Virus record (IMG/VR): IMGVR_UViG_3300037493_007233
Coordinates: 1-64,000 of that record
Length of the DNA: 64,000 nt
Direction: 5' to 3' (one strand)
DNA from: a virus
Shown here: positions 2,642 through 21,016 of the stretch, in pieces
Layout of the letters: every line of letters starts with the position of its first letter
Position numbering within the stretch: the stretch's first letter is position 1
The notes under the pieces: model-generated
Databases searched by the model: none
Told to the model about the DNA's origin: nothing
The model's input: only the letters and a program-made list of their open reading frames with translations
Program-made: the position numbers and the translations under genes

Positions 2642-2659
2642 ATCTAATTTTTATTTTAG

Positions 2660-2730: not shown

Positions 2731-2756
2731 ATATTGAAAAAGTGTTAAAACTTTAG

Positions 2757-2828: not shown

Positions 2829-2833
2829 AAATA

Positions 2834-2887
2834 CAGGATCGCTTTTTTTCGATATTGGAGATCAAATAAATTTGCTGAATCGATCCT
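2834..2887 (-). ncRNA. TTCAGCAA-motif RNA, copy 1 (candidate Y-RNA-like)
   Basis: AGGATCG-ATTCAGCAAA...CGATCCT-G terminal stem. Confidence 0.65.
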
Positions 2888-2894
2888 AAATTTT

Positions 2895-3428
2895 TTATGC
2901 TCTCTTAAGAGTTACTATAGTAAAATATGCTTTTTCATCAAGGCAAAATTCAATATCCTCTGGATATGTGCAATCGTAATGGCTAAGATCAGAATCATAG
3001 ATACCTTTTGCTATGCCTTTTTTAAACTCCATCTCGTCATTTACGTTCACGGGGGAAATGGAGCATTTAAGAATTTTCGGTAGGTATTTAGACTCTAGTA
3101 ACTTATGATGCTCTTGAAGTTCTCTCCATTCTTTTGAATGGTCACTTTTGTCTTGAACGAGCTGGTACCATTTTTCTTGTAGTTCCAGATGTTTCTGATG
3201 CTCTTCAAGTGTTACAGAAATTACTTTTGAAGAATGAATACTATCTACCGCCAGTGTAGGAAGCCAATTTCTAGCAATCTCCTCGCCGACGTAAAATCCA
3301 AGCTGGTATTCCAAGCTCATAGACTTAATACGATCGATCCTTTTTTGCTTTAATCCCTCATCAAGTTCTGGCGATCTATCTTCCTGAAACCGATGAGTAA
3401 GTTTTCTTGCCGTTGTTTCTTTTTTCAT
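2895..3428 (-). CDS. hypothetical protein
   Basis: 177 aa ORF between tRNAs. Confidence 0.7.
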   Translation of the reverse strand: MKKETTARKLTHRFQEDRSPELDEGLKQKRIDRIKSMSLEYQLGFYVGEEIARNWLPTLAVDSIHSSKVISVTLEEHQKHLELQEKWYQLVQDKSDHSKEWRELQEHHKLLESKYLPKILKCSISPVNVNDEMEFKKGIAKGIYDSDLSHYDCTYPEDIEFCLDEKAYFTIVTLKRA

Positions 3429-3430
3429 AA

Positions 3431-3507
3431 TGGCGGCCCGTACGGGACTCGAACCCGTGACCTCCGCCGTGACAGGGCGGCATTGTAACCATCTCTACTA
3501 ACGAGCC
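3431..3507 (-). tRNA. tRNA-Asp(GTC), CCA encoded
   Basis: CCGCC-CTGTCAC-GGCGG, ends GCCA. Confidence 0.95.
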
Positions 3508-3512
3508 AATTT

Positions 3513-3615
3513 AAAAGTCTCCCACGATTCTTTACCCCTTAAGGTAGTCCAGGATTTGAACCTGCCAAAACCGTTTATTTTTTCTTGCCACACCCACTAC
3601 GGACAGGAGATTTTT
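3513..3615 (-). ncRNA. candidate structured RNA containing an isolated T arm
   Basis: Closing AAAATCTCC/GGAGACTTTT, GTAGT/ACTAC, CAGG-TTCAAAT-CCTG. Confidence 0.45.
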
Positions 3616-3619
3616 TTTG

Positions 3620-3693
3620 TGACCCCGATGCGACTCGAACGCATAACCCCCGCATTAAAAGTGCGGTGCTCTAACCAATTGAGCTACGAGGTC
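3620..3693 (-). tRNA. tRNA-Lys(TTT)
   Basis: CCGCA-CTTTTAA-TGCGG. Confidence 0.95.
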
Positions 3694-3741
3694 TGAAGTT
3701 TGTCACTTTCAGTTTTCATAGGACCTTTTTTAATTTGTTTG

Positions 3742-3812
3742 TTACCCCTGATGGATTCGAACCACCATTAACTGGACCAAAACCAGTTGTCCTGCCGTTA
3801 GACGAAAGGGTA
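3742..3812 (-). tRNA. tRNA-Gln(TTG)
   Basis: ACTGG-TTTTGGT-CCAGT, U1-A72. Confidence 0.93.
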
Positions 3813-3822
3813 ATTTAAACTG

Positions 3823-3896
3823 TGGGCCCAGAGGGACTCGAACCCCCGACCAATTGATTATGAGTCAACTGCTCTAACCGACTGAGCTATGGGCCC
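3823..3896 (-). tRNA. tRNA-Ile2/Met(CAT)
   Basis: GGGCCCA acceptor typical of lysidine tRNA-Ile2, GTTGA-CTCATAA-TCAAT. Confidence 0.9.
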
Positions 3897-3902
3897 TAAA
3901 AA

Positions 3903-3959
3903 CGGGATGGTTTTTTCTTTTTTCAAATAAAAGTTTGGGTAATTTGCTGAACCCATCCC
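3903..3959 (-). ncRNA. TTCAGCAA-motif RNA, copy 2
   Basis: GGGATGG-GTTCAGCAAA...CCATCCC-G, compensatory changes relative to copy 1. Confidence 0.65.
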
Positions 3960-3961
3960 TT

Positions 3962-4037
3962 TGGAGCAGCAGACAGGATTTGAACCTGCGACCCCAACCT
4001 TGGCAAGGTTGTGCTCTACCAACTGAGCTACTGCTGC
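3962..4037 (-). tRNA. tRNA-Gly(GCC), CCA encoded
   Basis: CAACC-TTGCCAA-GGTTG, ends TCCA. Confidence 0.95.
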
Positions 4038-4040
4038 ATT

Positions 4041-4222
4041 ATGCCCCTTTTATTCGGTTAAGAAGGCGGGCAAAAGATAAGTTGATCTTAGCTGATCAGG
4101 CCAAACTTATCTCATATTCCTTAGGGTAACGAACCCACGACTGATATCGTTCACCGTCCGAAAAAACGTTCTTTTCTAATTTTATTACACTGCAGAAAAG
4201 AATAAAGATGCCGTGCGTGTGG
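4041..4222 (-). ncRNA. candidate multi-hairpin structured RNA
   Basis: TTCTTTTCT/AGAAAAGAA, ACGA/TCGT, GGGT-TCGTT-ACCC, AGATAAGTT/AACTTATCT, GCCC..GGGC hairpins. Confidence 0.4.
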
Positions 4223-4912
4223 TTAATCCTCGTCGAGATTATTATCTTTTTTAAAAAAAACCATTTTCATTCCGGATTTCCATCCTTCTTGAAGGTATTT
4301 TTCTATTTCCCCTTTTTTTATTCTTTTGTTAATTAGGTCTTCTGTGTTATGAATCCAACAGGTTCCAAATTGTGAATTCAATTCTGCTTTTTGAGCTCTA
4401 GAACTATTTTCACCGATTTTTCTTTTCGTTTCATCGGTGTGTTTTTTTCCTTTAAAAGATTTCATTGCTCCACCTAATAGCCTTTTTGAAATTTCTGGAT
4501 CGGACCAAAGCTTTTTCATAACTTCTGAAGAAACCAATTTCATTTTCGCGATGTAGTTGGGATCTTTCCAAACTTTTTCCGAAGTTTTTTTTGCGCCTTT
4601 GATAAGTTGTTCCTGTGTAAATCCAACATCTCCACCCTTACATAAATTCATACACATAGGATCGGCAAGAAGATCCTCGTTAACTATCTCGATTTCCCGG
4701 TCAGAAAGCTCTTTTCTAGTTTTAAAGAATTCAAGATATTCTATTCTAAAATTTTCTTTTCCGTGGTATTTTATTTTATGCCATAATTTATGTCCGCTTC
4801 CTAGATAGCCATCATCTAGATTATCGGTAGAGTGCATTCCAATGTAATATGACAAGTCAACTATACAAGTTGTTTTATATAAAACATTGAATTTTTTATC
4901 TTTCCTTGACAT
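4223..4912 (-). CDS. free-standing GIY-YIG homing endonuclease with NUMOD3 (paralog of 1023..1655)
   Basis: YYIGMHSTDNLDDGYLGSG nearly identical to the first HEG; GKKHTDETKRKI. Confidence 0.88.
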   Translation of the reverse strand: MSRKDKKFNVLYKTTCIVDLSYYIGMHSTDNLDDGYLGSGHKLWHKIKYHGKENFRIEYLEFFKTRKELSDREIEIVNEDLLADPMCMNLCKGGDVGFTQEQLIKGAKKTSEKVWKDPNYIAKMKLVSSEVMKKLWSDPEISKRLLGGAMKSFKGKKHTDETKRKIGENSSRAQKAELNSQFGTCWIHNTEDLINKRIKKGEIEKYLQEGWKSGMKMVFFKKDNNLDED

Positions 4913-4959
4913 TTTGTACTTCCGTTTATCTTATATATCCAAACGGAAGTACAAAATGT
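4909..4959 (-). promoter_or_regulatory. perfect 19-bp hairpin covering HEG start codon, GATATATA promoter motif in loop
   Basis: ACATTTTGTACTTCCGTTT (4909-4927) / AAACGGAAGTACAAAATGT (4941-4959). Confidence 0.75.
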
Positions 4960-4965
4960 TGAGCG

Positions 4966-5038
4966 AGCGGGAGACGAGATTCGAACTCGCGACCTATAGC
5001 TTGGAAGGCTATAGCTCTACCAACTGAGCTACTCCCGC
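4966..5038 (-). tRNA. tRNA-Gly(TCC)
   Basis: ATAGC-CTTCCAA-GCTAT. Confidence 0.95.
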
Positions 5039-5041
5039 AGG

Positions 5042-5088
5042 TTTGAGTAGACCCGGGCCCGATGGGCCCTTTTTAAGATCTACTCAAA
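5042..5088. repeat. nested inverted repeat / hairpin
   Basis: TTTGAGTAGA..TCTACTCAAA enclosing GGGCCC-GAT-GGGCCC. Confidence 0.55.
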
Positions 5089-5090
5089 GT

Positions 5091-5176
5091 CAGGATAGTG
5101 TTTAACTCCTAGTTTCCTAGGAGTATCGGAATTGAACCGATTGTATCCTAATAGTTTCAATTGCTGAATCTATCCT
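5091..5176 (-). ncRNA. TTCAGCAA-motif RNA, copy 3, with internal T arm and closed acceptor-like hairpin
   Basis: AGGATAG-ATTCAGCAA..ATCGG-TTCAATT-CCGAT-ACTCCTAG-GAAA-CTAGGAGT..CTATCCT-G. Confidence 0.72.
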
Positions 5177-5267
5177 TGGCGGAGGCTGAGGGATTCGAAC
5201 CCCCGGACCGGTTCCCCGGTCTTCAGTTTTCAAGACTGACGCAATCGACCAACTCTGCCAAACCTCC
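5177..5267 (-). tRNA. tRNA-Ser(TGA), CCA encoded
   Basis: TCAGT-CTTGAAA-ACTGA, long variable arm. Confidence 0.95.
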
Positions 5268-5358
5268 GAATTGACTCTAAGCTGATCTGACGGTAAGCTT
5301 TCGAGTACTGTTAAATATTATACGAAAGAAATTAAAAATGTTTCTTTCTTATAATTTG

Positions 5359-5431
5359 AGCCTCCTGACGGACTCGAACCGCCGACCATCTGATTACAAA
5401 TCAGAAGCTCTACCAACTGAGCTAAGGAGGC
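5359..5431 (-). tRNA. tRNA-Thr(TGT)
   Basis: TCTGA-TTTGTAA-TCAGA. Confidence 0.95.
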
Positions 5432-5445
5432 CTCAAGGCCTTTTT

Positions 5446-5493
5446 TTTCCAATACGTCAAAGAACTCCTTTTTTCTTTACTGCCGCAAACGTA
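5446..5493 (-). promoter_or_regulatory. Bacteroidota-type promoter (-7 TACGTTTG) followed by boxA-like element
   Basis: TAnnTTTG at 5486-5493; GAGTTCTTTGACGTATTGGAAA at 5446-5467. Confidence 0.6.
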
Positions 5494-5549
5494 CTGTGTT
5501 TCGGCGTATTGAAAAAACGATTCAATCTTTTTTTAGAAGATTGGATTTG

Positions 5550-5989
5550 TGGAGCTGGCGGGTTTCGAACCCGCGTCCAGCTAGATAAATCCTAAAAACT
5601 TCATTCACAGGCTTAGTTAATTTTTCTAAACTAACAAAATTTACCACCTATTTTTTTGGACTGAGATTGGTGATGATACTCAGCGGAGAACGCTAGCAGC
5701 GATCTAAAGGGTATTGGCTTGCGCCTCAGGGTTACTGATCATTCTCCAAAGCGGTACTGTTAACCCTTATTCCCGCAATTACAACTTTCTGTTCCCAGGC
5801 TGTTGCCGCCCAACGCTTAGGCTACTGCTAGAGCAACTTCAGCTTCCTTTTGAGGAACTAGTCCCGCAAGGATGAAAAATGGATTTTCGCCATTTGTTGT
5901 TTTACATAGGTTATTTAAGAGTTTCCAATGCTAACTCTGCCTGCATCAATTCAAAGAACTTTGACCTCCTGTCGATTCCATTCAGCCCC
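5550..5989 (-). ncRNA. ssrA: tmRNA, tag (A)GENPFFILAGLVPQKEAEVALAVA
   Basis: 5' GGGGCTGAATGGAATCGAC, 3' GACGCGGGTTCGAAACCCGCCAGCTCCA with G3:U; tag frame 5891..5817. Confidence 0.93.
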
Positions 5990-6007
5990 ATTTGTTTTTT
6001 AGAGCCG

Positions 6008-6015
6008 CAAAGATA
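6008..6015 (-). promoter_or_regulatory. Bacteroidota-type -7 element TATCTTTG upstream of tmRNA
   Basis: Matches TAnnTTTG ~20 nt before the tmRNA 5' end. Confidence 0.55.
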
Positions 6016-6049
6016 CCGAATTTGTTTTGCTTAAAAAAACGAATCCAAT

Positions 6050-6081
6050 AAAAAACCCAAATCTTTTTAGGATTTGGGTTT
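6050..6081 (-). terminator. intrinsic terminator, part of putative attenuator
   Basis: AAACCCAAATC-CTAAAAA-GATTTGGGTTT followed by U run. Confidence 0.8.
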
Positions 6082-6108
6082 GTGGCTCTGTAAAATTCTT
6101 TCAAAAAT

Positions 6109-6195
6109 TTAACTAACACAAACCCTGGTCACCTTTGGTGTCCAATTCCCTTTATCCTGCGATGCAAAATAACTGTATGTTTGTGAATGTATCAT
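6109..6195 (-). CDS. putative attenuator leader peptide MIHSQTYSYFASQDKGNWTPKVTRVCVS (28 aa), not in ORF track
   Basis: ATG..TAA right after promoter motifs; its 3' end GGGTTTGTG is complementary to CACAAACCC overlapping the terminator 5' arm. Confidence 0.65.
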   Translation of the reverse strand: MIHSQTYSYFASQDKGNWTPKVTRVCVS

Positions 6196-6269
6196 TTTTG
6201 ATTGAATTTCGAGATTTATATATCAAAGAATCTTTTTGTTTCATACATTTTCTGAAAAAATTCAAAAAA

Positions 6270-6998
6270 TTATTCTATTTTTTCATTTAAAATGTTACTA
6301 GCTTGGTAATTTACGAAAAAATTTGAGTCTATAGTGTCGTATTTGAATTTACGATTAGTCCCAAGACCTAAAATTTCTCTAGCTATATCCTCAGAGTGAA
6401 GCATCCTCCAATCAGAAGGGTTTTGAAAAGACCTTGAATATCTCCACCAGTGCCAAAGATTCCAGCCAGGGTATTGAGATTTGGAAGTGATTTCTTCTGT
6501 TCTGTCTTCTGACATATCAAATCTTCCAATTCTGTAGCTTGCATATGTTCCGTTCAATTCTTCTTCAATGCCTATAAAATTTTCATTGGGGAATATCCTT
6601 CTAAACCGGTCTAGATCAATTTGGGGTACTCCTAAAACCAGGTAGCATTTCCATTTTTTCTGGAACTCCTTTGAAATTTTAACCCAAGATTGACCCTCTA
6701 GCCTATTTTCATAGTGAAGGTCTATCCTAACCAATTTTTCCTCCGGATTATAAGTGTATTCGTCTACTTTTGTCATTCCCTGATCTGGTACAAAAGCCCA
6801 AAGCTCTATGGTATTGTTAGCAAAAAATTGCTCGTGGGAAAGAAACCAATAATCTCTATACAGATTCTCAGCAGCGGTTTTAAAAAGAATCCTGTCACCA
6901 ATTTTTTCTTTGATTAAGACAGTGAATTCTGTATCATCTGCTAAAAAGTCGTAACTGCCTACATTAACGTAGACCCCATAATTAAACTTTACATCCAT
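6270..6998 (-). CDS. degenerate Aah/TibC-like protein, carbamoyltransferase partner 1
   Basis: Paralog of 10421 and 23999 (YNPEEKLVRIDL..W..EFQKKWKC..YASYRIGRF). Confidence 0.6.
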   Translation of the reverse strand: MDVKFNYGVYVNVGSYDFLADDTEFTVLIKEKIGDRILFKTAAENLYRDYWFLSHEQFFANNTIELWAFVPDQGMTKVDEYTYNPEEKLVRIDLHYENRLEGQSWVKISKEFQKKWKCYLVLGVPQIDLDRFRRIFPNENFIGIEEELNGTYASYRIGRFDMSEDRTEEITSKSQYPGWNLWHWWRYSRSFQNPSDWRMLHSEDIAREILGLGTNRKFKYDTIDSNFFVNYQASNILNEKIE

Positions 6999-8581
6999 TC
7001 TTTAAAATATACTTTATCTCCAGCAATAAGAAAATCAATAGTCCCCTTTGAAATATGGGCAAAAGCTTGATCTGGGGTATCTATAATTGGTTCTCCGTGA
7101 CCATTAAAAGAGGTATTCAGGATCAGAGGAATTCCGGTCCTTAAATAATAGGCATTGATCAACTCATACCATCTTGAATTTTTTACCTTATCGACAAATT
7201 GGGGTCTTCCAGTTTTATCGACATTATGTATACAGGCAGGAACTCTATCAACCCATTCATCTTTCACTGTATAACAGATTGTCATGAACTCTGCTGAATA
7301 CGAAGACTTTTCAGCTAGATGAAATACATCCCCTGCTTTTTCTTTTAGTATGGCGGGCGCAAAAGGCATAATCTCGTGTCTTCCCAATCTAAAGTTTAAA
7401 ACGTCGTGGGTTTCCTGCTCTGTTGCTTTAACTATAATTGATCTTGCTCCAAGTGCTCTTGGACCAAACTCAAATCTACCACTGAAAAATGCTCCTATTA
7501 AACCATCGTTCAAAAATTCAGCAACTTCCTCTGGTTTATATGGTTTAGAAAAGAAACCGTGAGAATTTGAGATCATATCAATTTCATCCTCAGAATACTC
7601 TAGCCCCCAAAATAAACTGTCTATTCTTTTTGGTGCTGGCCATTCTCCTAATTCATAAGCCATAGAAATCGCAGATCCCAAAGAAATGCTTTCGTCTCCC
7701 ATAGGGGGAAGTACATAGATCTCTTCTATCGAAGGTATTTCATTTATTTTTTGATTCATTTTTACGTTTGCAAAAATGCCTCCGCCAAAACACATTTGTC
7801 TGGAATGCTCAGGAAAGATTGAAATTAGGTCTTTTACAAATTCAACCATAACTTCCTCGGTAACCTTCTGGAGAGCATAAGCATAGTTTTTTCTTCCCTC
7901 ATCGGATTGAAAAACCCCTTGCTTTTCTAATCCTCTAACCATACTCCAGATTAAAGGGTTGTTACCAGACGGTAAAAAATTTAAAGAACCTTTACCGCCG
8001 TACTTTATGACGCTACTTATTATTCGGTAAATGTTTTCATCGTAAACTCCATTCCCTGACATCCCCATGATTTTACCTTCGTCTTTAACTGGCTTCCATC
8101 CATAGGGGTGACACGAGTTTGCCCAAATCTGACCAAGGCTTGCGCATTCTCCAATATGGAGATTCTTCACCAATTGCATCTGACCATCTTCGCAAAGCCA
8201 AATACTCCCGTAAGTACCATCACCACCACCATCAAAAGTAAAAGTTATAGCTTTTCCCTCGAAGCCACTTGTAAGATAAGCTGCTTTTGCATGGCATTCG
8301 TGGTGATCAAAAGTTTTAACCCCCTTGTCAGGTAAACCTGATTCCCTGATAAATTTTAGAGATATTGGTCTTGCAGTACAAATCCAGTCAGCATCTAATA
8401 TATTAAAACCAATTTTTTCTTGGATCTTATCTTTACAAAGAAAAGGGAAAGATGGCTGGTTGTCTCCAGATTTAATCCTTGTGAATCTTTCCTCCTCAAC
8501 AGCAATTATAATTTCACCGTCATCGATAATTACGATTGATGCATCGTGGGTACCCGAATGATAACCGACTATTCTTGACAT
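6989..8581 (-). CDS. carbamoyltransferase, NodU/CmcH/TobZ family
   Basis: HDAS, EEERFTRIK, HHECHA, DGGGD, EGKIMG, GGIFANVKMN, EFGPRALGARS, LNTSFNGHGEP. Confidence 0.95.
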   Translation of the reverse strand: MSRIVGYHSGTHDASIVIIDDGEIIIAVEEERFTRIKSGDNQPSFPFLCKDKIQEKIGFNILDADWICTARPISLKFIRESGLPDKGVKTFDHHECHAKAAYLTSGFEGKAITFTFDGGGDGTYGSIWLCEDGQMQLVKNLHIGECASLGQIWANSCHPYGWKPVKDEGKIMGMSGNGVYDENIYRIISSVIKYGGKGSLNFLPSGNNPLIWSMVRGLEKQGVFQSDEGRKNYAYALQKVTEEVMVEFVKDLISIFPEHSRQMCFGGGIFANVKMNQKINEIPSIEEIYVLPPMGDESISLGSAISMAYELGEWPAPKRIDSLFWGLEYSEDEIDMISNSHGFFSKPYKPEEVAEFLNDGLIGAFFSGRFEFGPRALGARSIIVKATEQETHDVLNFRLGRHEIMPFAPAILKEKAGDVFHLAEKSSYSAEFMTICYTVKDEWVDRVPACIHNVDKTGRPQFVDKVKNSRWYELINAYYLRTGIPLILNTSFNGHGEPIIDTPDQAFAHISKGTIDFLIAGDKVYFKEWM

Positions 8582-13816: not shown

Positions 13817-14047
13817 CAGGATCGGGATTCGTATTCTTCGCCTCGGCAGGTCTAACCCTTTTAACGTCTTTGGTTTAGCTTTCAAAGCAACACCTTCCGG
13901 TGTTCCCTTTACTCGTCGCCCTATTTGGGGTGGTTGACGCTTTGTTTTTTTAGGCTGGACTTAGAAACCAGTTTTTTCCCGAATTACCGAAGTAATTCTA
14001 AGGATTAGCATAGTTCATGTATAGATAAATTTTGCTGAATCGATCCT
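13817..14047 (-). ncRNA. TTCAGCAA-motif RNA, copy 4 (~230 nt, multi-hairpin), directly downstream of the Ro-like gene
   Basis: AGGATCG-ATTCAGCAAA...CGATCCT-G enclosing GAATTAC-TTCG-GTAATTC, AACACC-GGAA-GGTGTT and other hairpins; followed by terminator. Confidence 0.72.
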
Positions 14048-14055
14048 AAAGTTTT

Positions 14056-15489
14056 TTAAGCTATGATATTTATATACCTTTCTGATAAAATTGTTTCGTC
14101 CATAATTTGTTGAGGTGATACAATTTCTCCCTTCAACAAACTTTTCAAAATAGATGGTGAGAAACCAGAAACCAAAGCAGTTCCTGATTCATTGAAAGAT
14201 ACTGGGATGTTTTCTCCTCTAGATTGGATATTCCAATAAACAATCTCTGGCATTTTATAACCAGCATCACCAAACATTTTTTGGATCATTTGCTGTGCAG
14301 TTGGGCTCCATTGGGTGTTACTAGAAAAAACACTGCTGCTATGTATTGCAGCATCAAACTCCATGTCAGAGAGAACCAATATCTTTGTTGGCATTTCGCT
14401 TTCTGGTACATTGTTTTTAACAGCTTGATCTAGAATAAGTGTAAACACTTTTTGCAAATCCGTGTTATACCCCCAATCTGCTCTTCTCAACTGAATAAAT
14501 CTTTCGTTTAACGTTCCCTTCAAAATCTGCAATTGTGGTTCTGCACTAAAAGTAATAAATGCATCCTTAAATGCTCCTTCATTTCTTTCGGAGATATAAA
14601 GTCCAAGAGAGATTGAAACGTCCATGCACGAAACATTTCCGTTACCCCCTGCTCCGGTCATCATAGACCCAGAAACGTCAACCACCGGAAGTACCCTTTC
14701 GGTAGATCCCTCCATGAAGTTAGGAAGGGCTTTCCATTGGGCATTCGCGACGTCTTTATTTCCACGCTCCAAAGATTTTGTGACGTCATAAGGATAAACT
14801 GCACCAGCGTTGATTTTCTCTTCGCCCTTAGTCAGTTTCTCAACATAAAGTTTATATCTCTCACCGTCCCTTTTCCAAAAAGCTTTTTGGTATCTTGCAG
14901 ATGCCAAAGATGGAAGTTTTCCGTACTCGATTGCTTCCCATTGATTAGCACACATTTTTGTCTCCACCACGTTAGTTAGGTAAACTAATGTTTTGCGGTA
15001 TTGTTTTGGAGACATTTTCATAAATTCACGCAATCTCTGAGCAATTGTGCCTTTGCGAGGCATCCATTTAGCACATAGACCGTTGCCTGCTCCGATAGCA
15101 ATTTGGATCTGTGAAAATGCTTCTTCTTCCAGCTTTGTTCCCGCCAGGACTAATAGATCATCCCAACGACCGTATTCTGAAATAAGACCGATGTTCTTCT
15201 TCAAAGTCTCGCTTTGGTTTTCAACAAGATACGCAAGGATGTCCTTAAATATTTGTCTTTCCCCGGCACCTTCTCTTACGTCTCTAGCCCAAAAAAGAAT
15301 TTTCATGGCACGAGTAGGGTCTTCGTTGAAAGCCAAAGAAAAATTCCTGATCAATCTTTCCTTGTTCTGCCCTCTCATTGCACCAATTGTAAAGAATAGA
15401 TCTACACAAAAGTTCAGTGAAGAAGAATTTGTCGCCATACCGTTCTCTGTTACAGCGTCTTGGGTTTGAAGTGCATCTACTAATTTCAT
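14056..15489 (-). CDS. DUF2828 / TROVE-like + vWA protein (Ro60-related)
   Basis: TENG, RDVREGAGER, YGRWDD, AKWMPR, MIDAS DVSGSM, WGYNTD, SDMEFD, YWNI, SGFS. Confidence 0.85.
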   Translation of the reverse strand: MKLVDALQTQDAVTENGMATNSSSLNFCVDLFFTIGAMRGQNKERLIRNFSLAFNEDPTRAMKILFWARDVREGAGERQIFKDILAYLVENQSETLKKNIGLISEYGRWDDLLVLAGTKLEEEAFSQIQIAIGAGNGLCAKWMPRKGTIAQRLREFMKMSPKQYRKTLVYLTNVVETKMCANQWEAIEYGKLPSLASARYQKAFWKRDGERYKLYVEKLTKGEEKINAGAVYPYDVTKSLERGNKDVANAQWKALPNFMEGSTERVLPVVDVSGSMMTGAGGNGNVSCMDVSISLGLYISERNEGAFKDAFITFSAEPQLQILKGTLNERFIQLRRADWGYNTDLQKVFTLILDQAVKNNVPESEMPTKILVLSDMEFDAAIHSSSVFSSNTQWSPTAQQMIQKMFGDAGYKMPEIVYWNIQSRGENIPVSFNESGTALVSGFSPSILKSLLKGEIVSPQQIMDETILSERYINIIA

Positions 15490-15532: not shown

Positions 15533-16624
15533 TCACAATTTTCTAAACTCTGGCTTAATAATTCTCCAGATTGTGGGCCCGATGTCCTTGCCGTCCAGAA
15601 GACCGAATAACAGGGATGGATGCTTGAATCCAGCAGTAGCAAATTGTGCAAACAACTTTCTAGTTCCAAGTCTTTTTATGGATTCAAAATGGTCCTCGTA
15701 CTCAGCCTTTAAAGCAGAGAATTCATTTAAAAGTTCAGTTTCGTATTCTTTAATCTTATTGAAAAACTCATCAGGTACACCTTTCAGTAAATTGTCCATA
15801 GATTCACCGCTAGACAAAACTTCCCAGACTGATGTAGTCGATAAATTAGTCATGATCTTATGAAGGGCAACGTAATCTTCGAATTTTATTTTCATCCGGA
15901 AGTTACCAGGAAAAAACCTTAAAACAAAACCTTCTTTGTTTTTTTCATTCTTTTCCTTCAAGGACTTGTAAAGATCATCCGAAAAATTAAAGTGTTGTTC
16001 TGTCTTAACAATATCTGATTTCTTGATTCCATTTGCAGCAAAAATAGAACAAGCGGTTGTCCAATGTAGTTCAGTTTCATCCGTTGGTTTCCAACCTGCA
16101 AATCCTTCGTTTAGGACTGCTGACAAGAAGGTTATTTTCTCCTTTCCATAGTCCACAACGATACGATTTTCAGGATATATGATTTCTACAAGATAAGCGT
16201 ACTCTTGTAGCCAAGCTCTATCAAATACCGGATACTTTCTTTTAATGATTTCCATTCCTTTGATTGCCTGTTCAGACGTAAATGAACCCCGAGTAGCCAT
16301 TATCCAGTCACCTTCGTAGCAGAACAGTATACCCAAAGAACCGTCCATCTTTTCCTGGATGTAAACGTAATCACCCTTGGATGGAATAAACCCCTTACCA
16401 ACAAGCTCTTCGTAGTTGAAGAATTTATTAAATGGGCGAACTAGGATAGTTCCCGATTTATCCTCGGTAATCAAACCTCTACATTGAAGGGTCACATCGT
16501 CCCAAAGCCCATCATACTGAACTTTTTCAGTGTAATTCCAAATAGTTAAGGGAAGACTTGGGTGTGACTGCTTTGAAAGCAATCCGTTCTCAAAGTACGT
16601 ATTTAGTGTAGCTATATCCATCAC
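15533..16624 (-). CDS. T4 Rnl1-type RNA ligase
   Basis: CRGLI, PFNKFFNY, motif I EKMDGSL, ATRGSF, EGFVL, KIK. Confidence 0.9.
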   Translation of the reverse strand: MMDIATLNTYFENGLLSKQSHPSLPLTIWNYTEKVQYDGLWDDVTLQCRGLITEDKSGTILVRPFNKFFNYEELVGKGFIPSKGDYVYIQEKMDGSLGILFCYEGDWIMATRGSFTSEQAIKGMEIIKRKYPVFDRAWLQEYAYLVEIIYPENRIVVDYGKEKITFLSAVLNEGFAGWKPTDETELHWTTACSIFAANGIKKSDIVKTEQHFNFSDDLYKSLKEKNEKNKEGFVLRFFPGNFRMKIKFEDYVALHKIMTNLSTTSVWEVLSSGESMDNLLKGVPDEFFNKIKEYETELLNEFSALKAEYEDHFESIKRLGTRKLFAQFATAGFKHPSLLFGLLDGKDIGPTIWRIIKPEFRKL

Positions 16625-16673
16625 AAGGAATTTACTACAAATGTAAAGGAATGTTTCGTACTAAAAAAATGTA

Positions 16674-18107
16674 CTAAAATCTTTTAATCACATAAAGCTT
16701 TTTACTTGCTCTTGTATAAGCAGTATACTTAATCCTATTCCTCTCTATCACATCAAGATTCAAATCGATGTCATCTTCTGAAAGGAAAGTCACGGTGTAT
16801 GTGCTACCCTGAGATTTGTGGGCTGTGATCGAATATGCGTAAGAGACGTCCGCAAAAGTTCTTAGAAAATCATAATACTGGATCCACGATTTATCCTTGC
16901 CTTTTTTTGCAATTGCCTCAGCTTTCAAAAAGTTAGCAGCTTTTTGAAAATCAGCTTGGCTTGATTCGTGAAGAATGTCTATTACCTCTTTACACCTTTC
17001 CCCATTATCGTCTAAATAATAGACTTCAGTTTCGTAGTACTTGAGATCAACAAGTTCGTGGTCAATCGAGACCTTCGAATTCTTGATCTTGTACTCATGA
17101 ACAGTAAATTCGTCGTTGGTATTGAACAGGATCTCTGACTGCCAGATGATTGGATTGTTTGCAATCAATTTTTCACCTACCAGTATTTTAGAAGTCAGTG
17201 CATCTTCTCCATAAATTACCTTTCTAACAATTCCATTCATTGTGGCAACTGTCTTATTTCTCCAAGCTATGACCTTACAATATTCAGAATTTTTCTCGAA
17301 TTCCTCTGTTTTGAAATATCTGGCTAGTATATCAGAAAATGACCTCCGTACTTCTACGTTATTGATGTTTATGAATTCAATTCCTTCGCCTTTGGCATTT
17401 ACCTTATTTTCGAGAGGAACCAAAGAAACAGATCTTCCGACATTTTCTCTTATGAGAACAGAGGAGGAGATAATTGGGTTATCCAGTTTTTGCCTCATGA
17501 TGGTACTTAGCTGGAGTGTCTTGATACCATATTGTTCCAGGAGTTCATCCATAAACGGAATGCAATCCGGTCTTCCTACTGGTGGGATTTGGGCAGGATC
17601 TCCCATACAGATAATTTTCGTCTTATCCCTTCTTTCAATTACTTTCTCAAATAGGTCATCGTTAAGCATAGAAACCTCATCGATGATAAGCAACTTGGTG
17701 GAATTTATGGCTGGTTTAAATCCTGTTTCTTGATCAGCAACAAATTCCTGCCTACCGTCCATTGTTATTCTTTCCTTTAATCCAAGTAATTTGTGGATAG
17801 TCTGAAAAGATAGTCTGGGGCTATATAAACCTGATGCCTGCTTGATTACCCTGACTGATTTATTAGTCGGTCCCGTTACTGCAATTTTGTACCAGTCCTT
17901 GTTGGGATAAACCTCATCTAGGATGTAGTTGACAAGGAGACTGATGCAAAAAGTTTTTCCTGTTCCAGCCCAGCCTTTAAGAACAAAAATCCTGTGATCG
18001 TCTTTGTCCATAATATAGGTCAAAAGGCGTTCAAAAGCAATCCTCTGGTCCGTGTTCATCACGTCCAGGTTGATTTCAGGTTTCTTTATTTTTTTCTTAG
18101 TCTTCAA
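16674..18107 (-). CDS. dda: Dda/RecD-like SF1B helicase
   Basis: GWAGTGKT, PTNKS, TIHKLL, IIDEVSM, GDPAQIPPV, TAHKSQGSTY, YTAYTRA. Confidence 0.85.
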   Translation of the reverse strand: MKTKKKIKKPEINLDVMNTDQRIAFERLLTYIMDKDDHRIFVLKGWAGTGKTFCISLLVNYILDEVYPNKDWYKIAVTGPTNKSVRVIKQASGLYSPRLSFQTIHKLLGLKERITMDGRQEFVADQETGFKPAINSTKLLIIDEVSMLNDDLFEKVIERRDKTKIICMGDPAQIPPVGRPDCIPFMDELLEQYGIKTLQLSTIMRQKLDNPIISSSVLIRENVGRSVSLVPLENKVNAKGEGIEFININNVEVRRSFSDILARYFKTEEFEKNSEYCKVIAWRNKTVATMNGIVRKVIYGEDALTSKILVGEKLIANNPIIWQSEILFNTNDEFTVHEYKIKNSKVSIDHELVDLKYYETEVYYLDDNGERCKEVIDILHESSQADFQKAANFLKAEAIAKKGKDKSWIQYYDFLRTFADVSYAYSITAHKSQGSTYTVTFLSEDDIDLNLDVIERNRIKYTAYTRASKKLYVIKRF

Positions 18108-18748
18108 GATGGCATGTACAAAATAGTTGGGTTGTCCTTATGGACATCAACCTCAGGATAAGATTTTCTAAATTTTGACAGATTAAATGGTCTTGTGATA
18201 ATGTGGGTACCGTTCTTTGTAGGCAGGTATTTAACAATTGGTTCCTTCCCGGTTTGAGCCTGGAGTTCCTGAACAAGCAAAGCAAGATTTCCAATCTCTG
18301 CTTTATTTGGCCAATCTACCCAATCAATATCAATGATCCACTTTTTCTCGCTGTCTTTGCAATAAGCTCCACACACAGACTCATATGCTTTATGAACTGA
18401 TCTAAAATCTTTGTTCATAATTTGGTCCGTTACCTTTTTAAGAGTGTGAAATGCCATAGACTCAAACGATCTTTTGTTCAGATTTATGCAAGCTCTGGCA
18501 TTGTTAAAGTCACAAAGATTAATAATCTCTGGCATCTTACTTTCCAGATATTCCCAAGATCTTACGTAAAAGGTCTTGACAACATAAGAATTGGAACCAA
18601 GATCTGGATTTTCCTTTTTTCTCTTCAGAATTTGAAGGTGCAGGAATTCATCACTAGATCCGAACTTTACCAAGTCTTTTATGATATCTAGATTGTTAAT
18701 CATTTTTTCTCCATTGTTGGTTTCAGCCAAAGAATACCGCTGAAGCAA
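18104..18748 (-). CDS. AEP (primase-polymerase) superfamily-like protein; start probably at ~18703
   Basis: WIIDID (DxD) and TKNGTHIIT motifs. Confidence 0.55.
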   Translation of the reverse strand: MLQRYSLAETNNGEKMINNLDIIKDLVKFGSSDEFLHLQILKRKKENPDLGSNSYVVKTFYVRSWEYLESKMPEIINLCDFNNARACINLNKRSFESMAFHTLKKVTDQIMNKDFRSVHKAYESVCGAYCKDSEKKWIIDIDWVDWPNKAEIGNLALLVQELQAQTGKEPIVKYLPTKNGTHIITRPFNLSKFRKSYPEVDVHKDNPTILYMPS

Positions 18749-19431
18749 AAATCGGCTAGTAGCGGGTATTTCATCAAAGTTTGCATAGTGAAGAAAGTAT
18801 CAAACGAAAAACACTTAATCAGTTCTTCTCTAATTCTTTCCTGCGAAACAACCGCCATTTTGACTTCATAATCATAGTTAGAGATCACATTTTGCATTTC
18901 CTCTGGAATTGTAAATCTCTTAGTAATAGAAAATCTTATTGCTCTCAAAATTCTTAGCGGATCGTCATGAAAGGTAACCTCACACGGAAGTGGTGTAACC
19001 AAAACCCCAGCTTTTAAGTGTTCAATGCCGTCGAAGAAGTCTATGATTTTTCCGTCATCGTCTTTTGCCAGTGCGTTCAAAGTGAAATCTCTTCTTTGCA
19101 AATCATCGAAAAGAGTTCCAGGTACTACAATAGGTGTTCTGGTAAATGGAATATATCCTGTTTCTTTCCGAGCCATAACAAAATCTGCAACACCAGAATA
19201 TTTGTGACTCAATGGAAATTTTGCTCGGATAGTGAAGCAGTCCCCAGTAACCAAAAAGATCTCAAATCCTTCCAGTCGAAGGAAGCTTTCTAGAATTCCA
19301 AATAAAGCGTGTGGTGAGCTTACATCTTTAAGTAAGCTATCATCAGCAACAGCAACATAATCGATGTCCTTAGATTTAAGACCTAAGATTTCGTCTCTAA
19401 TACAACCACCTACTTCATAGAATTTGAACAT
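18700..19431 (-). CDS. cca: tRNA nucleotidyltransferase (CCA-adding enzyme)
   Basis: VGGCIRD, DID, RRDFTLNA, DDPLRILRAIRF, ERIREEL. Confidence 0.9.
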   Translation of the reverse strand: MFKFYEVGGCIRDEILGLKSKDIDYVAVADDSLLKDVSSPHALFGILESFLRLEGFEIFLVTGDCFTIRAKFPLSHKYSGVADFVMARKETGYIPFTRTPIVVPGTLFDDLQRRDFTLNALAKDDDGKIIDFFDGIEHLKAGVLVTPLPCEVTFHDDPLRILRAIRFSITKRFTIPEEMQNVISNYDYEVKMAVVSQERIREELIKCFSFDTFFTMQTLMKYPLLADFCFSGILWLKPTMEKK

Positions 19432-19492
19432 ATATTTTTGTTTAACTCACAAAACTAACTTTTACAAGCGTAATGAAAAATCGAATCTGGAT

Positions 19493-20581
19493 TTACTTCT
19501 CGTTTTTCAGCAAAAATTTATTGCTGATAGCTTTGAATGAAATGGACATATCATAAGATCTTATAACTACGCCCTCTCTTTCCGTATTTGGATTTAGTCC
19601 TGACTTACCCTCTGCCCATTGAAGCATGCCCTCAACTGTATGTGGAAGCAGGAAATCCAATCCTAAAAATGGAACATAGTCAAATTCCAATTTTTCGATC
19701 ATCTCGACAAATTCTCTCATGACCAATTTTTTGTTATTATCAATATCGAAAGCATTGAAGAATTTTACGGTGTGACCCTTTATCTTATAAGGGTTTCCTT
19801 GGATGCCCTCTCCTATCAATTCACCCTGTAAGCAAATATTTACACCTAAAGCGCCAAGTTTTTCTTCAATCTGAAGCTCCCTGGCAACTTTCCAAAAAGT
19901 ATTATCTGGGGTTTCAAGAAGTTCCAAATTTCTAGAACATACCCCGAACTGACCGTTTCTGAAGTAAAATGTTGCGGATGACCCGTCGAGTTTTTCAGTC
20001 ACATAAAATTTGTGGTCGCTTCTGTAATTCAATTTTAAAAATTGTTCCTCTAGATTCTGCACTCTTTCCTCGTCGGTTTTTCGGAGGAATGAAGGAAATC
20101 CACCCTTAACCTTTCCCGAAAGCTCTGCTGGAATTGGCGGTTCATATTTAAGGACATGCAGATAATCTGTGACGTCAGTTCCTTCTTCAATTAGAATAGC
20201 ATCATCCCAAGGACCAAGTTGAAGCTGATCTCCCCAGGGCTGTTGGCTGATTCCAATTTTCATATCAGAATCGTTTTCTAAAATAGATAAGGGTAAGCAA
20301 AGACCCTGTGAAACTTGACCTTTTAATTTAATTGTTTTCAATCTGAATCCCTCAAGATCGCCCATCTTTTTATATGATGATTTTCTTAGAAATTCAAAAT
20401 CTTCTTCAATGGGTAAAAAAGAATCAATTTCGAAATAAACACATAGATCACCAGGTTTAAACTCGCCTTTCTTTGTTACAACTTTCCATCCATCGACAAC
20501 AGCCACCTCGATAGCATCTGCTCCTTCAATCGGGAGTAATTCTTTTATTTTGCGTATAGACGCTAATTTTCTTTCTATCAT
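19493..20581 (-). CDS. RNA ligase, DRB0094/Rnl5 family
   Basis: N-terminal OB (IEGADAIE..YFEIDS..SQGL), KTDEER, EKLDGSS, EGVV, FKAISNKFL. Confidence 0.9.
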   Translation of the reverse strand: MIERKLASIRKIKELLPIEGADAIEVAVVDGWKVVTKKGEFKPGDLCVYFEIDSFLPIEEDFEFLRKSSYKKMGDLEGFRLKTIKLKGQVSQGLCLPLSILENDSDMKIGISQQPWGDQLQLGPWDDAILIEEGTDVTDYLHVLKYEPPIPAELSGKVKGGFPSFLRKTDEERVQNLEEQFLKLNYRSDHKFYVTEKLDGSSATFYFRNGQFGVCSRNLELLETPDNTFWKVARELQIEEKLGALGVNICLQGELIGEGIQGNPYKIKGHTVKFFNAFDIDNNKKLVMREFVEMIEKLEFDYVPFLGLDFLLPHTVEGMLQWAEGKSGLNPNTEREGVVIRSYDMSISFKAISNKFLLKNEK

Positions 20582-20632
20582 TCTGCCTTGTAAATTTTTT
20601 CTAAATTGTTCAAATACTCATTTTTTTCTTAT

Positions 20633-21016
20633 TCATAGCTTAAATTCAAATCGGTTTTTCATTTGTTCTAGCTTATCGACCGGAACCCCGTGCACATTCT
20701 CACCTCCGTGGCGGTTTTCAACAATCAAGGAATACACCCTGTATCCTTTTTCTGCTGCCATTTGGAAATAGGGTTCCATTTCCCACTCCTGAGTAAATGT
20801 GTTGGAGACAACAATTTTTTGTATTCCCAAAAACATCCAATCCGAAACTTGGGCTTTACACCATTCGTGGGCAGTCCTTATTTTGGTAGGGTCAAACTTG
20901 TATTCTCCGTTTACCATAAAATACTGGTCTGCTTCCACTTGTTCTCCACCTAAACTCTTGGCGAGAGTTGATTTACCTGATCCTGGTAATCCTCTTAGTA
21001 AAAATAGTTCTTTCAT
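20633..21016 (-). CDS. P-loop kinase (AAA_33, polynucleotide-kinase-like)
   Basis: RGLPGSGKST, EAD, VSNT, NVHGVP. Confidence 0.85.
   Translation of the reverse strand: MKELFLLRGLPGSGKSTLAKSLGGEQVEADQYFMVNGEYKFDPTKIRTAHEWCKAQVSDWMFLGIQKIVVSNTFTQEWEMEPYFQMAAEKGYRVYSLIVENRHGGENVHGVPVDKLEQMKNRFEFKL

Follow-up and report, generated by a model that had tools for sequence, protein, structure and literature searches.

A probable D-armless, YrlA-like RNA in a viral tRNA array: a putative adaptor for a Ro60-like protein with a cargo resembling a tRNA top half

What kind of RNA carries a T arm that is not part of a canonical tRNA? The question is raised by a viral tRNA array in which such an arm lies between two tRNA genes on the minus strand of the window (the whole stretch of DNA analysed, 64,000 nt of a 73.6-kb record). 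We consider it probable that the surrounding element, termed copy C (5092..5176 (-), about 85 nt, delimited by sequence, fold, the covariance model R1 and a syntenic ortholog), is a small non-coding RNA in which a docking module for a DUF2828/DUF7788 protein is joined to a cargo resembling the top half of a tRNA. It would most likely represent a YrlA-like RNA that is reduced, has no D arm and is built on a new docking module. Its protein binding and its role as an adaptor are what we infer; the sequence, fold, family, conservation and gene linkage of the RNA, as well as the Ro-like fold of the protein, can be described directly.

On the minus strand, the 3' end of tRNA-Ser(UGA) reads GCCA (5180-5177, by sequence and ARAGORN) and copy C follows directly at 5176; on its 3' side lie a second hairpin and then tRNA-Gly(UCC). 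The 5' strand of the terminal stem, AGGAUAG (5170..5176 (-)), can form seven base pairs with 5098-5092 and leads into the conserved single-stranded motif AUUCAGCAA (5161..5169 (-)). A variable stretch of 19 nt (5142..5160 (-), defined by alignment with the ortholog) precedes the T arm AUCGG-UUCAAUU-CCGAU (5125..5141 (-)), in which G53-C61, U54, U55, C56, R57 and A58 can be assigned. Without a spacer, this arm is followed by the closed acceptor-like hairpin ACUCCUAG-GAAA-CUAGGAGU (5105..5124 (-)), which comprises 8 bp under a GAAA cap, and 5 + 8 = 13 stacked pairs are possible. The remainder (5092..5104 (-)) consists of the linker UAAACA (5104-5099) and the 3' strand CUAUCCU (5098-5092), after which comes G5091. 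This linker takes the position of a D arm, which is absent from 5092-5176: these 6 nt alone separate the AS stem from the closing strand. An earlier note had already described a perfect T arm inside the terminal stem, a GAAA hairpin directly after it, a 5' end abutting the CCA of tRNA-Ser(TGA) and no clear D arm, and on the minus strand all of these features prove correct. The terminal stem is in register with the GG....CC stem of the module family described below, and it is the consensus in an RNAalifold prediction from copy C and its ortholog. AGGAUA recurs within the variable stretch as an alternative partner for the 3' strand that competes with the terminal stem; the MFE structure of the window sequence favours this inner AGGAUA/UAUCCU pairing over the family stem, whereas the MFE structure of the ortholog and the consensus take the outer stem.

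The 96-nt stretch containing copy C has a folding energy of -27.2 kcal/mol (z = -4.31), which 0 of 200 shuffled sequences reach. Of T-arm-like hairpins, the window has 20 on its minus strand against 0 on the plus strand, and those other than copy C lie in called tRNAs, in the tmRNA (5574) and in two tRNA-like matches with long inserts (390, 198). When the window is resampled with a first-order Markov model, a mean of 0.32 such hairpins per window is obtained, and the combination with an adjoining closed hairpin is expected at a mean of 0.017 per resample (N = 300). Neither ARAGORN nor Rfam (RF00005, E <= 10) calls a canonical tRNA at copy C, which has no anticodon arm, and no Rfam family accounts for copy C or its three relatives in the window (copies A, B and D) at gathering thresholds or at E <= 10; the matches of snoR97, gltS and mir-362 over copy C, and of the L10 leader and others over copy D, are weak and at chance level. 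Several other candidates were rejected: a MotA-box-like promoter would lie on the wrong strand relative to all genes, a terminator does not fit because no U tract follows copies A-C, and the lack of repeats other than the 6-7-bp stem disagrees with a mobile element. Part of a 2.9-kb stretch was found in 20 of 24 listed sequencing runs, six of which are RNA runs (shares <= 0.14). DNA contigs cover copy C with 0 differences (X2) or with one, at 5158 in the variable stretch (X6). In two metatranscriptome runs, RNA contigs lie on the tRNA-like parts only and leave copy C otherwise uncovered; copy C is presumably transcribed and processed.

The earlier note had set conservation of the T arm in a homologous copy as a test beforehand. 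The only ortholog found (L238:412-503(-)) is syntenic and has the same tRNA neighbours, and its T arm is identical at 16 of 17 bases, the sole change (A57 to G) being allowed by the T-loop consensus. The single-stranded motif is identical as well, and so are the last 10 nt of the variable stretch, UUAGGAUACA (5151-5142). In the closed hairpin, one A-U pair is replaced by G-C in a compensatory manner and GAAA by GUAA, both GNRA loops; the first pair is lost and 7 bp remain, and 9 nt then lead from the AS stem to the closing strand. A pattern search of viral contigs for further orthologs gave 0 matches, and because only one was found, the internal covariation of copy C amounts to a single pair. 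These data bear on the idea that copy C is a decaying, non-functional remnant of a permuted tRNA-like RNA or of a tRNA gene, so that at most the docking module matters. The lost hairpin pair would agree with decay, as would the failure of the Rfam tRNA and YrlA models to match copy C. However, the T arm and all 10 of the 10 nt preceding it were kept while the flanking tRNA-Gly and the Thr-Ser spacer fell to 78% and 77% identity, respectively, and the hairpin shows a compensatory exchange with its GNRA loop retained. We therefore regard a remnant as unlikely, and return to it with the sister RNAs below.

Copy C belongs to a family of modules. The earlier note had counted it as the third copy of a motif, and the 73.6-kb record indeed has GGATNNNTTCAGCAA at 4 places on its minus strand and at none on its plus strand. 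Copy A (2834..2888 (-), 55 nt) and copy B (3904..3959 (-), 56 nt) are minimal module RNAs recognised by sequence and by R1, a covariance model from 40 RNAs of other contigs that includes no window sequences and gives rough E-values (42.6 bits, E 4.3e-10 and 43.7 bits, E 2e-10, respectively). Copy A ends 7 nt from tRNA-Glu; copy B stands directly 3' of the CCA of tRNA-Gly(GCC) and 7 nt ahead of tRNA-Met. Copy D (13817..14048 (-), about 232 nt by sequence and fold) has the common terminal module around an interior that is homologous to large RNAs found 3' of DUF2828 in related loci; it starts 8 nt past the DUF2828 stop, and a terminator-like hairpin follows it. R1 matches copy C over its full model length (26.0 bits, E 3.7e-5) with a local insertion of 43 nt and copy D in its 5' part alone (13.2 bits), while its other matches on both strands of the 64 kb are at chance level (E >= 0.24). 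In an alignment of 44 short family RNAs (A2), the single-stranded motif has the consensus N-U-W-C-A-G-C-A-A, with U, C, G, C and A invariant and two A's nearly so, and the GG...CC-UG of the stem is invariant in 44/44. The 100% pairing of the stem in the family is partly circular, as the sequences were chosen by a scan that demands pairing. A loose motif scan proved unspecific by strand (682 v 644), and stricter scans were therefore used instead.

The modules are strongly associated with genes for DUF2828/DUF7788 proteins, and this holds from both sides. At loci fetched by protein, the module starts 16-415 nt (median 44) past the DUF2828 stop in 76/80 cases. Closed modules lie on the gene strand in 238 cases and on the other strand in 21, whereas the bare core motif is about equally frequent on both (913 v 804). 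In the other direction, starting from the RNA, a DNA pattern alone served to fetch 165 loci: a DUF2828 gene is present in 18/32 loci with the closed motif, mostly 86-478 nt away, versus 1/133 without it, and the fetched stretch has no DUF2828 gene in 14/32 closed-motif loci, some of which are short and some coding-like. Cultured phages show the same association. In Listeria phage LMTA-57, three modules lie immediately upstream of the DUF2828 gene, and in Mycobacterium phage Samty three RNAs lie 3' of a "Ro-like RNA binding protein" that is DUF2828 + DUF7788 by Pfam. An alternative reading takes the module for an element that serves punctuation or processing in phage tRNA transcripts, acting as nuclease entry or folding insulator independently of DUF2828, with the T arm as a by-product of tRNA recombination. 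Such an element would be expected where copies A, B and C are found, namely exactly between tRNAs: a CCA immediately precedes B and C, and the next tRNA begins 7 nt past A and B. The modules of E. coli Felixounavirus Alf5, too, lie within a tRNA array, which adjoins the DUF2828 gene. Yet the strongest positional signal comes from the DUF2828 gene and not from tRNAs, with 143/181 distinct gene-strand modules in the first kb 3' of the gene, and modules occur up- or downstream of the gene with no tRNA near in Listeria, Samty, L094, L203 and L204. Punctuation is, in our opinion, rather improbable.

The presumed partner is a protein of 477 aa with DUF2828 + DUF7788 by Pfam and PHROG, encoded at 14056..15489 (-). 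The earlier note had linked the element to a Ro-like protein; by fold, this part stands. The AF2 model of the protein (pLDDT 89.3, pTM 0.89) finds Ro60/TROVE entries as all of its 12 best Foldseek matches in the PDB (E 4e-11 to 1e-6, aligned columns 511-588), and full-length matches with TM 0.42-0.63 include the Ro60 proteins of Xenopus, human, Deinococcus and Thermus phage phiLo. The modelled protein is thus Ro60-like by fold, with a HEAT-repeat ring and a vWA domain. At the sequence level, Pfam TROVE (PF05731) has no match in the 73.6-kb record, and phmmer against PDB sequences returns no Ro60 for this protein at E <= 10. The family is large: there are 6,731 representatives at E <= 0.001, and homologs occur in 711/50,697 cultured-phage records. 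A longer homolog search gave 9 proteins, of which seven are fungal by name, one stems from a JGI metagenome source and one is unnamed. By title or abstract, none of the papers found for DUF2828 concerns RNA or phages. The family identifiers lead to plant papers, and the papers listed among the matches to the module motif strings are unrelated primer or siRNA hits. Immediately upstream of the DUF2828 gene, on the same strand, lies an RNA-repair set (15533..21016 (-)) identified by Pfam: an Rnl1-type ligase (15533-16624 (-)), an SF1 helicase (16674-18107 (-)), a PolyA_pol/CCA-type nucleotidyltransferase (18700-19431 (-), also found by a PF01743 search of the record), an RNA ligase with an OB fold (19493-20581 (-)) and an AAA_33 kinase (20633-21016 (-)). 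Locus L030 has the same CCA-type gene 3' of its module RNAs, and the Listeria phage has an RtcB gene near the DUF2828 gene; the 73.6-kb record, a 26%-complete fragment, contains no RtcB. The gene for the presumed partner is 8.9 kb away from copy C in the window and 4.3 kb in the ortholog's locus.

Several sister RNAs carry a full permuted tRNA domain inside the module, with a T arm, a closed acceptor, U8/N9 and a D arm, the last identified by eye (L050, L116, L125 (two), L166, L178, L202 (two), L204 (two), L205, L210, L242 and L250). Two of these loci give partial matches to the Rfam YrlA model, at model positions 23-85 (L204, 39.2 bits, E 2.3e-5; L202, 33.9 bits, E 8e-4). D-armless forms with a T arm and a hairpin, as in copy C, are found in RNA 1 of L203, in L223 and in the L068 lineage. 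A D arm and an anticodon-stem equivalent, both missing from copy C, are retained in most sister RNAs, which speaks for a decaying remnant; against it speaks the recurrence of the D-armless form in these unrelated module RNAs. The same comparison bears on a third possibility, namely that copy C is, in the strict sense, a circularly permuted tRNA gene, with a transcript that is end-joined and re-cut into a working tRNA. Permuted tRNA genes, in which the 3' half precedes the 5' half, are known from a red alga; copy C shares this order and has RNA ligases encoded nearby. However, copy C has neither a D arm nor an anticodon stem or loop, the docking module with large internal loops replaces the anticodon loop even in the complete sister RNAs, and a stable tetraloop closes the acceptor end, which makes a working tRNA very improbable. 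The sister RNAs fit the preferred reading of one docking stem with exchangeable cargos: nothing, a tRNA top half or a full permuted tRNA.

Among the known systems, YrlA RNAs (RF02553) provide the closest parallel proposed by the earlier note. According to the excerpted text of Chen et al. (2014; PMC4201824), their parts are arranged in the order V, T, AS, D, a GNCGAAN0-1G motif near the 5' end is the proposed Rsr site, and by definition a TROVE-domain Ro60 gene lies <= 4 kb away on the same strand. Within the bounds of that text, copy C resembles them in that its ends pair into a stem with a predicted protein site, in its order of terminal stem, variable stretch, T arm and loop-closed acceptor-like stem, and in its location on the strand of a Ro-type protein gene in an RNA-repair setting; the interior of a YrlA RNA, which corresponds to a tRNA with an open anticodon and a closed acceptor end, can likewise be compared to the module RNAs. 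Copy C differs by the absence of the D arm and of the GNCGAAN0-1G motif described there (its 5' side reads AGGAUAG-AUUCAGCAA), by a presumed partner that Pfam TROVE does not recognise and by a docking module of other sequence. It also lies beyond the stated 4-kb limit, whereas copy D is 8 nt from the gene. Alignment to the Rfam YrlA model did not go the note's way, as copy C has no match at E <= 10 in either 5040-5178 or a scan of 1-7000 (gathering score 69 bits), so that the proposed permuted module stands on its part order and sister RNAs and lacks the model match, the motif and the D arm. The YrlA set of PMC4201824 includes 22 phages, and some DUF2828-type phage loci may already be among them.

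The terminal module also resembles the Class I RNAs of Dictyostelium (RF01414). As reported in the excerpted text of Kjellin et al. (2021; PMC7919456), these RNAs are unique to dictyostelids and have a 6-bp stem of their 5' and 3' ends, in which the leading G, paired to the C of a 3' CUG(U), is conserved and the rest variable and compensating, and an 11-nt motif by the 5' strand in which C6, C9, A10, A11 and a U at position 3 are near-invariant; their direct binder is the RRM protein Rnp1A/CIBP. Measured against this description, the stem of copy C (AGGAUAG / CUAUCCU then G; family 3' end C-UG-U) and the 11-nt motif CCUUACAGCAA directly 3' of the 5' strand, which agrees at 11/11 positions in many phage copies, are alike, and so are the A/U-rich, variable interior and the total length of about 55-60 nt of copies A and B. 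In copy C itself, AG-AUUCAGCAA fits at C6, C9, A10 and A11, has U at 4 and differs at position 5. Copy C is longer than the 42-65 nt given for Class I RNAs, at 85 nt with a tRNA-like insert, and the hosts of the module are phages and not amoebae. RF01414 scores 20.4, 25.4, 24.9 and 25.9 bits on L050, L017, L037 and L204 (gathering score 41.5) and is the top Rfam family at the element where all matches were compared (L050, L017 and L037); on the window, including the AUUCAGCAA copies, no match is reported at E <= 10. We found no link between Class I RNAs and DUF2828 in the published literature. It is conceivable, although only tentatively proposed here, that docking module and Class I RNAs are one and the same RNA device, with DUF2828/DUF7788 as its conserved partner and a second, unrecognised branch of the Ro60 fold.

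A further parallel is Thermus phage phiLo, with a Ro-like ring encoded by a phage and the RNAs Yrl1/Yrl2 beside its gene (PMC12135203). In the excerpted text of that paper, a CGAA motif within a bulged stem defines these RNAs, and a tRNA-like part is not described (PMC12135203). The phiLo protein differs in being a recognised Ro60 homolog; among structures, its entries (PDB 9KOP, 9L5Y) match the window protein best. As for the cargo, the tRNA acceptor/T minihelix or "top half" is a coaxial stack of T stem and acceptor stem of 12-13 bp with a canonical T loop, and in D-armless mitochondrial tRNAs a short linker replaces the D arm. Copy C differs from both in having no anticodon arm, and because a GNRA loop closes its acceptor end, it has no 3' end to extend or charge. 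The earlier note had also proposed a tRNA decoy or elbow mimic tethered to the Ro-like protein. The Ro-like fold and the link between module and protein family stand, decoy and tether would be predicted roles, and the protein gene is not adjacent; the elbow is doubtful because copy C has no D loop, in whose absence the T loop may fold otherwise than in tRNA, and a mimic of the tRNA top half (acceptor/T minihelix) fits better.

A mechanism can be proposed along these lines. Copy C would be excised from the tRNA-array transcript by ordinary tRNA-processing enzymes, its 5' end arising after the CCA of tRNA-Ser. Its docking module, a 6-7-bp terminal stem with a GG start and a CC-UG end and with N-U-W-C-A-G-C-A-A single-stranded on the 5' side, would present the UUACAGCAA motif and the GG/CC stem as the recognition site of the DUF2828/DUF7788 protein, a ring of divergent Ro60-like type that includes a vWA domain. 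In the cargo, a T arm would stack on an acceptor-like stem closed by a GNRA loop, and together they would offer a tRNA's upper half, with neither a D nor an anticodon arm. In the manner of YrlA-type Y RNAs, copy C could then couple the ring to enzymes that grip tRNA top halves, for which the phage CCA-type nucleotidyltransferase and RNase P are candidates, or it could gate the ring. It would presumably act within the tRNA-repair kit of the phage, that is, two RNA ligases, a kinase and a CCA enzyme.

Ro60/Y-RNA particles form a conserved machine for RNA surveillance, and to our knowledge RNA partners of this type are known for one protein family only. DUF2828/DUF7788 proteins occur in hundreds of cultured phages as well as in fungi and plants, and a very large family of "unknown function" now gains a concrete, testable predicted RNA ligand and a Ro-like fold; tractable hosts are available among E. 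coli Felix O1-like, Listeria P100-like and mycobacteriophages. The modular design within a phage tRNA-repair kit bears on how translation may be guarded from host defences that cleave tRNAs. If the relation to Class I RNAs were true, these RNAs would not be confined to amoebae and would be the minimal form of a widespread, virus-spread Y-RNA-like system that carries cargos such as tRNA top halves and whole permuted tRNAs for RNA repair or surveillance. Dictyostelids would then be predicted to have a protein of the DUF2828 type as a binder of Class I RNAs, for which DDB_G0281243, an uncharacterised pull-down protein named in the excerpted text of the preprint of Kjellin et al., would be one candidate. 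What Class I RNAs do has been open since 2004, and the likeness of the phage module makes the question directly testable.

Read on the minus strand, which carries all large genes of the window, copy C (5092-5176) is an element of about 85 nt that begins directly after the GCCA 3' end of tRNA-Ser(UGA) (5180-5177). Its terminal stem (AGGAUAG, 5176-5170; CUAUCCU followed by G, 5098-5092) encloses the single-stranded motif AUUCAGCAA (5169-5161), a variable stretch of 19 nt (5160-5142), the T arm AUCGG-UUCAAUU-CCGAU (5141-5125), the closed hairpin ACUCCUAG-GAAA-CUAGGAGU (5124-5105) and the linker UAAACA (5104-5099). The T arm, closed hairpin, terminal stem and CCA contact thus lie where an earlier note, made from the sequence alone, had placed them, and the element read on this strand has no D arm, as that note had also remarked. 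The stretch folds better than its shuffles (z = -4.31; 0 of 200 as good). T-arm-like hairpins number 20 on the minus strand of the window and 0 on the plus strand, and resampled sequence yields 0.32 per window, or 0.017 with an adjacent closed hairpin.

The surrounding array holds 16 tRNA genes within bases 5-5431, with a tmRNA gene upstream (5547-5989), in an IMG/VR virus record that is estimated to be 26% complete and of which the window covers 64 of 73.6 kb. The array is interrupted by two GIY-YIG/NUMOD3 homing-endonuclease-like genes (1023-1655 and 4223-4912, minus strand), the second just downstream of a perfect 19-bp inverted repeat (4909-4927/4941-4959). Several tRNA-like sequences were not called by ARAGORN (174-284, 366-523, 933-1006 and ~3508-3618, minus strand); the Rfam tRNA model scores 31.7 and 36.2 bits with long insertions and, for a third, 25 bits. 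They have a common 25-nt 3' repeat (family D8; third copy at 3540-3564) and may be intron-bearing or atypical tRNAs. On a related contig of viral origin (L084:18337-18925), a tmRNA and a group I intron (100.3 bits) are matched at overlapping positions.

The motif GGATNNNTTCAGCAA, whose repetition the earlier note had pointed out, occurs four times in the record, always on the minus strand. Copy A (2888-2834) lies 7 nt before tRNA-Glu; copy B (3959-3904) abuts the CCA of tRNA-Gly(GCC) and lies 7 nt before tRNA-Met; copy D (14048-13817) starts 8 nt past the stop of the ORF 14056-15489 and is followed by a terminator-like hairpin. In all four copies, the 6-7 bases preceding the motif can form a stem with a strand farther downstream, after which comes YG, and a variable stem position compensates (C-G in A and D, G-C in B and A-U in C). 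A covariance model of this docking module, R1, trained on 40 short RNAs exclusively from other contigs, recovers copy B (43.7 bits, E 2e-10), copy A (42.6 bits, E 4.3e-10) and copy C (26.0 bits, E 3.7e-5), in which the T arm and hairpin are taken as a 43-nt insertion; copy D is matched weakly in its 5' part (13.2 bits). Any further R1 match on the two strands of the window has an E of 0.5 or higher. Across module RNAs the stem positions are 100% paired, with 68 double changes versus 19.5 in shuffles, a count that is inflated because the sequences were picked by a scan that demanded pairing.

The sole syntenic ortholog of copy C that was found, the metagenome locus L238, has the order tRNA-Thr, tRNA-Ser(UGA), element, second hairpin, tRNA-Gly(UCC). 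Identity to the window is 78% for the flanking tRNA-Gly and 77% for the Thr-Ser spacer, and the docking module shows no differences. The 10 nt preceding the T arm, UUAGGAUACA, are also the same. The T arm, whose loss from homologous copies would have spoken against the earlier note, is kept with a single change (A57 to G) of a kind that T loops permit. The hairpin has G-C in place of one A-U pair and a GUAA loop in place of GAAA, which is likewise GNRA, and is shortened to 7 bp by loss of its first pair. An RNAalifold consensus of the two sequences has 19 pairs, one of them compensatory, and comprises the outer stem as well as the T arm and the hairpin. The minimum free energy fold of the window sequence closes through an inner AGGAUA and that of L238 uses the outer stem, so that copy C may also close in an alternative way. 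That copy C is a decaying remnant, another reading of an element that has no D arm, we regard as quite unlikely beside this conservation. Two neighbouring stretches are kept as well. A second long hairpin without a U tract, UGAGUAGAUC...GGGCCC-AUC-GGGCCC...GUCUACUCA (5044-5086, minus strand), separates copy C from tRNA-Gly(UCC) and has one change in L238, at which pairing is retained as G-U. In the spacer that precedes tRNA-Ser, the final ~45 nt (5268-5312, minus strand; ACAGUACUCGAAAGCUUACCGUCAGAUCAGCUUAGAGUCAAUUC) are near-identical in L238 while the first half differs, and may be a conserved leader element.

In sister RNAs the module stem and motif enclose a permuted tRNA domain, in the order anticodon-stem 3' strand, variable region, T arm, loop-closed acceptor stem, U8/N9, D arm and anticodon-stem 5' strand (L050:3815-3957, L116, L125 (two), L166, L178, L202 (two), L204 (two), L205, L210, L242 and RNA 2 of Mycobacterium phage Samty). 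The D arms were identified by eye, and that of L050:3815-3957 is identical to the D arm of the next tRNA-Leu. D-armless forms like copy C are RNA 1 of L203, where a GCAA-capped hairpin follows the T arm, L223, and the first post-gene RNA of the L068 lineage, whose close relatives L073 and L075 are without the insert altogether. Since the cargo ranges from none at all to an entire permuted tRNA, the family is modular with one docking stem, and copy C is a reduced form of the permuted tRNA-like module RNAs. That copy C is a true permuted tRNA gene is highly improbable.

The ORF 14056-15489 encodes DUF2828 plus DUF7788 (Pfam; phrog_850 'RNA-binding protein'). Related viral loci were retrieved by protein (60-70% identity), and in 76 of these 80 a module starts 16-415 nt (median 44) past the DUF2828 stop; in the other 4 the motif is visible by eye and closing is imperfect or the flank short. 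By one fixed criterion, 238 closed modules lie on the gene strand versus 21 on the opposite strand; the bare core motif is near-equal by strand (913 and 804). Among 165 loci fetched by DNA pattern alone, a DUF2828 homolog, usually 86-478 nt away, is present in 18 of the 32 whose motif is closed by its own complement plus YG, versus 1 of the 133 without a closed motif. These strand and association controls are free of the selection flaw of the covariation count. RNAs lie upstream of the gene in several pattern-fetched lineages (L094, L203, L204). In Listeria phage LMTA-57 three modules stand in tandem just upstream of the DUF2828 gene (35.6, 25.4 and 23.6 bits), near which there is also an RtcB gene; Samty has three RNAs past a gene annotated 'Ro-like RNA binding protein' (DUF2828 plus DUF7788 by Pfam), and in E. 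coli Felixounavirus Alf5 two modules lie inside a tRNA array that begins 166 nt past the gene. We consider it unlikely, given this linkage, that copy C is a processing element independent of the protein, as its place in a tRNA array might suggest. In the Alf5 interval from tRNA-Glu to tRNA-Tyr, the two module RNAs are interleaved with two unannotated tRNA-like sequences that have CCA ends (L251:3285-3368 and 3453-3528). Samty gene 55, a hypothetical CDS (L250:3053-3247), overlaps both the RNA predicted to be permuted tRNA-like and the third module RNA, and is probably not a protein gene. The DUF2828 family occurs in 711 of 50,697 phage records (tblastn) and, by homolog search, in fungi; the Aeh1 record remarks on similarity to an Arabidopsis protein.

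An AlphaFold2 model of the window protein, built with 48 diverse homologs (pLDDT 89.3, pTM 0.89), was compared with the PDB by Foldseek, and the best 12 matches are all Ro60/TROVE entries, from Thermus phage phiLo, Xenopus, human and Deinococcus (E 4e-11 to 1e-6, TM 0.42-0.63, 511-588 aligned columns), with plain vWA domains ranking behind. Pfam TROVE does not match the protein, nor does phmmer against PDB sequences see the Ro60 relation. The Ro-like protein postulated earlier is accordingly predicted to be so by its modelled fold alone. The DUF2828 gene ends an RNA-repair set that lies directly upstream of it (15533-21016, minus strand): an AAA_33 kinase, an RNA ligase with PHA02142 OB fold, a PolyA_pol/CCA-type nucleotidyltransferase, an SF1 helicase and an Rnl1-type RNA ligase. 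The same CCA-type gene stands directly behind the module RNAs in the relative L030. The arrangement parallels rsr-yrlA-rtcB and the jumbo-phage 'ROT/TROVE plus tRNA-like partner' repair platform (PMC7824862). A ClpP protease gene lies beside the set (21502-22164, minus strand). The window also holds three paralogous Nol-like carbamoyltransferase genes of ~530 aa each (6989-8581, 11140-12726 and 22410-24002, minus strand) and a methyltransferase-domain protein gene (8632-10326, minus strand); all but the one at 22410-24002 stand between the array and the DUF2828 gene.

The best-supported reading of copy C is a Y-RNA-like adaptor. Processing of the tRNAs would release the RNA, the docking module would bind the DUF2828 protein, and enzymes that recognise the upper half of a tRNA, as CCA-adding enzymes and RNase P do, could use the closed acceptor/T minihelix as a handle. 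Of the label given earlier, tRNA mimicry holds for the T arm and closed acceptor; 'top-half mimic' is preferable to 'elbow mimic' or 'decoy' because the acceptor end is sealed and the D loop absent. The proposed YrlA likeness stands in part: the Rfam YrlA model aligns to the T-AS-D core of two sister RNAs (39.2 and 33.9 bits; gathering score 69), but copy C, while like YrlA in its presumed working, differs in model score and in having no D arm, GNCGAA motif or TROVE neighbour within 4 kb. A Ro-type protein with a tRNA-mimicking Y RNA is an already known kind of system, of which copy C is a variant. In the literature searched we found no paper linking DUF2828 to RNA, or the docking motif to phages; the 22 phages of PMC4201824 may include DUF2828-type mycobacteriophage loci.

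The closest catalogued relative of the docking module appears, unexpectedly, to be the Dictyostelium Class I RNA. On module RNAs of L050, L017 and L037 its Rfam model scores highest of all families, and an RNA of L204 is matched by it as well (20.4-25.9 bits overall, against a gathering score of 41.5). Kjellin et al. (2021) describe a 6-bp stem uniting the ends, a conserved leading G, compensating stem changes, a variable interior, an unpaired 11-nt motif beside the 5' strand, a length of ~60 nt and a 3' CUGU; the phage module RNAs show each of these features, and CCUUACAGCAA is exact in many phage copies. They hold Class I RNAs to be unique to dictyostelids, and their preprint names four pull-down proteins, among them the uncharacterised DDB_G0281243. 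The docking module may link the phage system to an unexplained eukaryotic RNA class.
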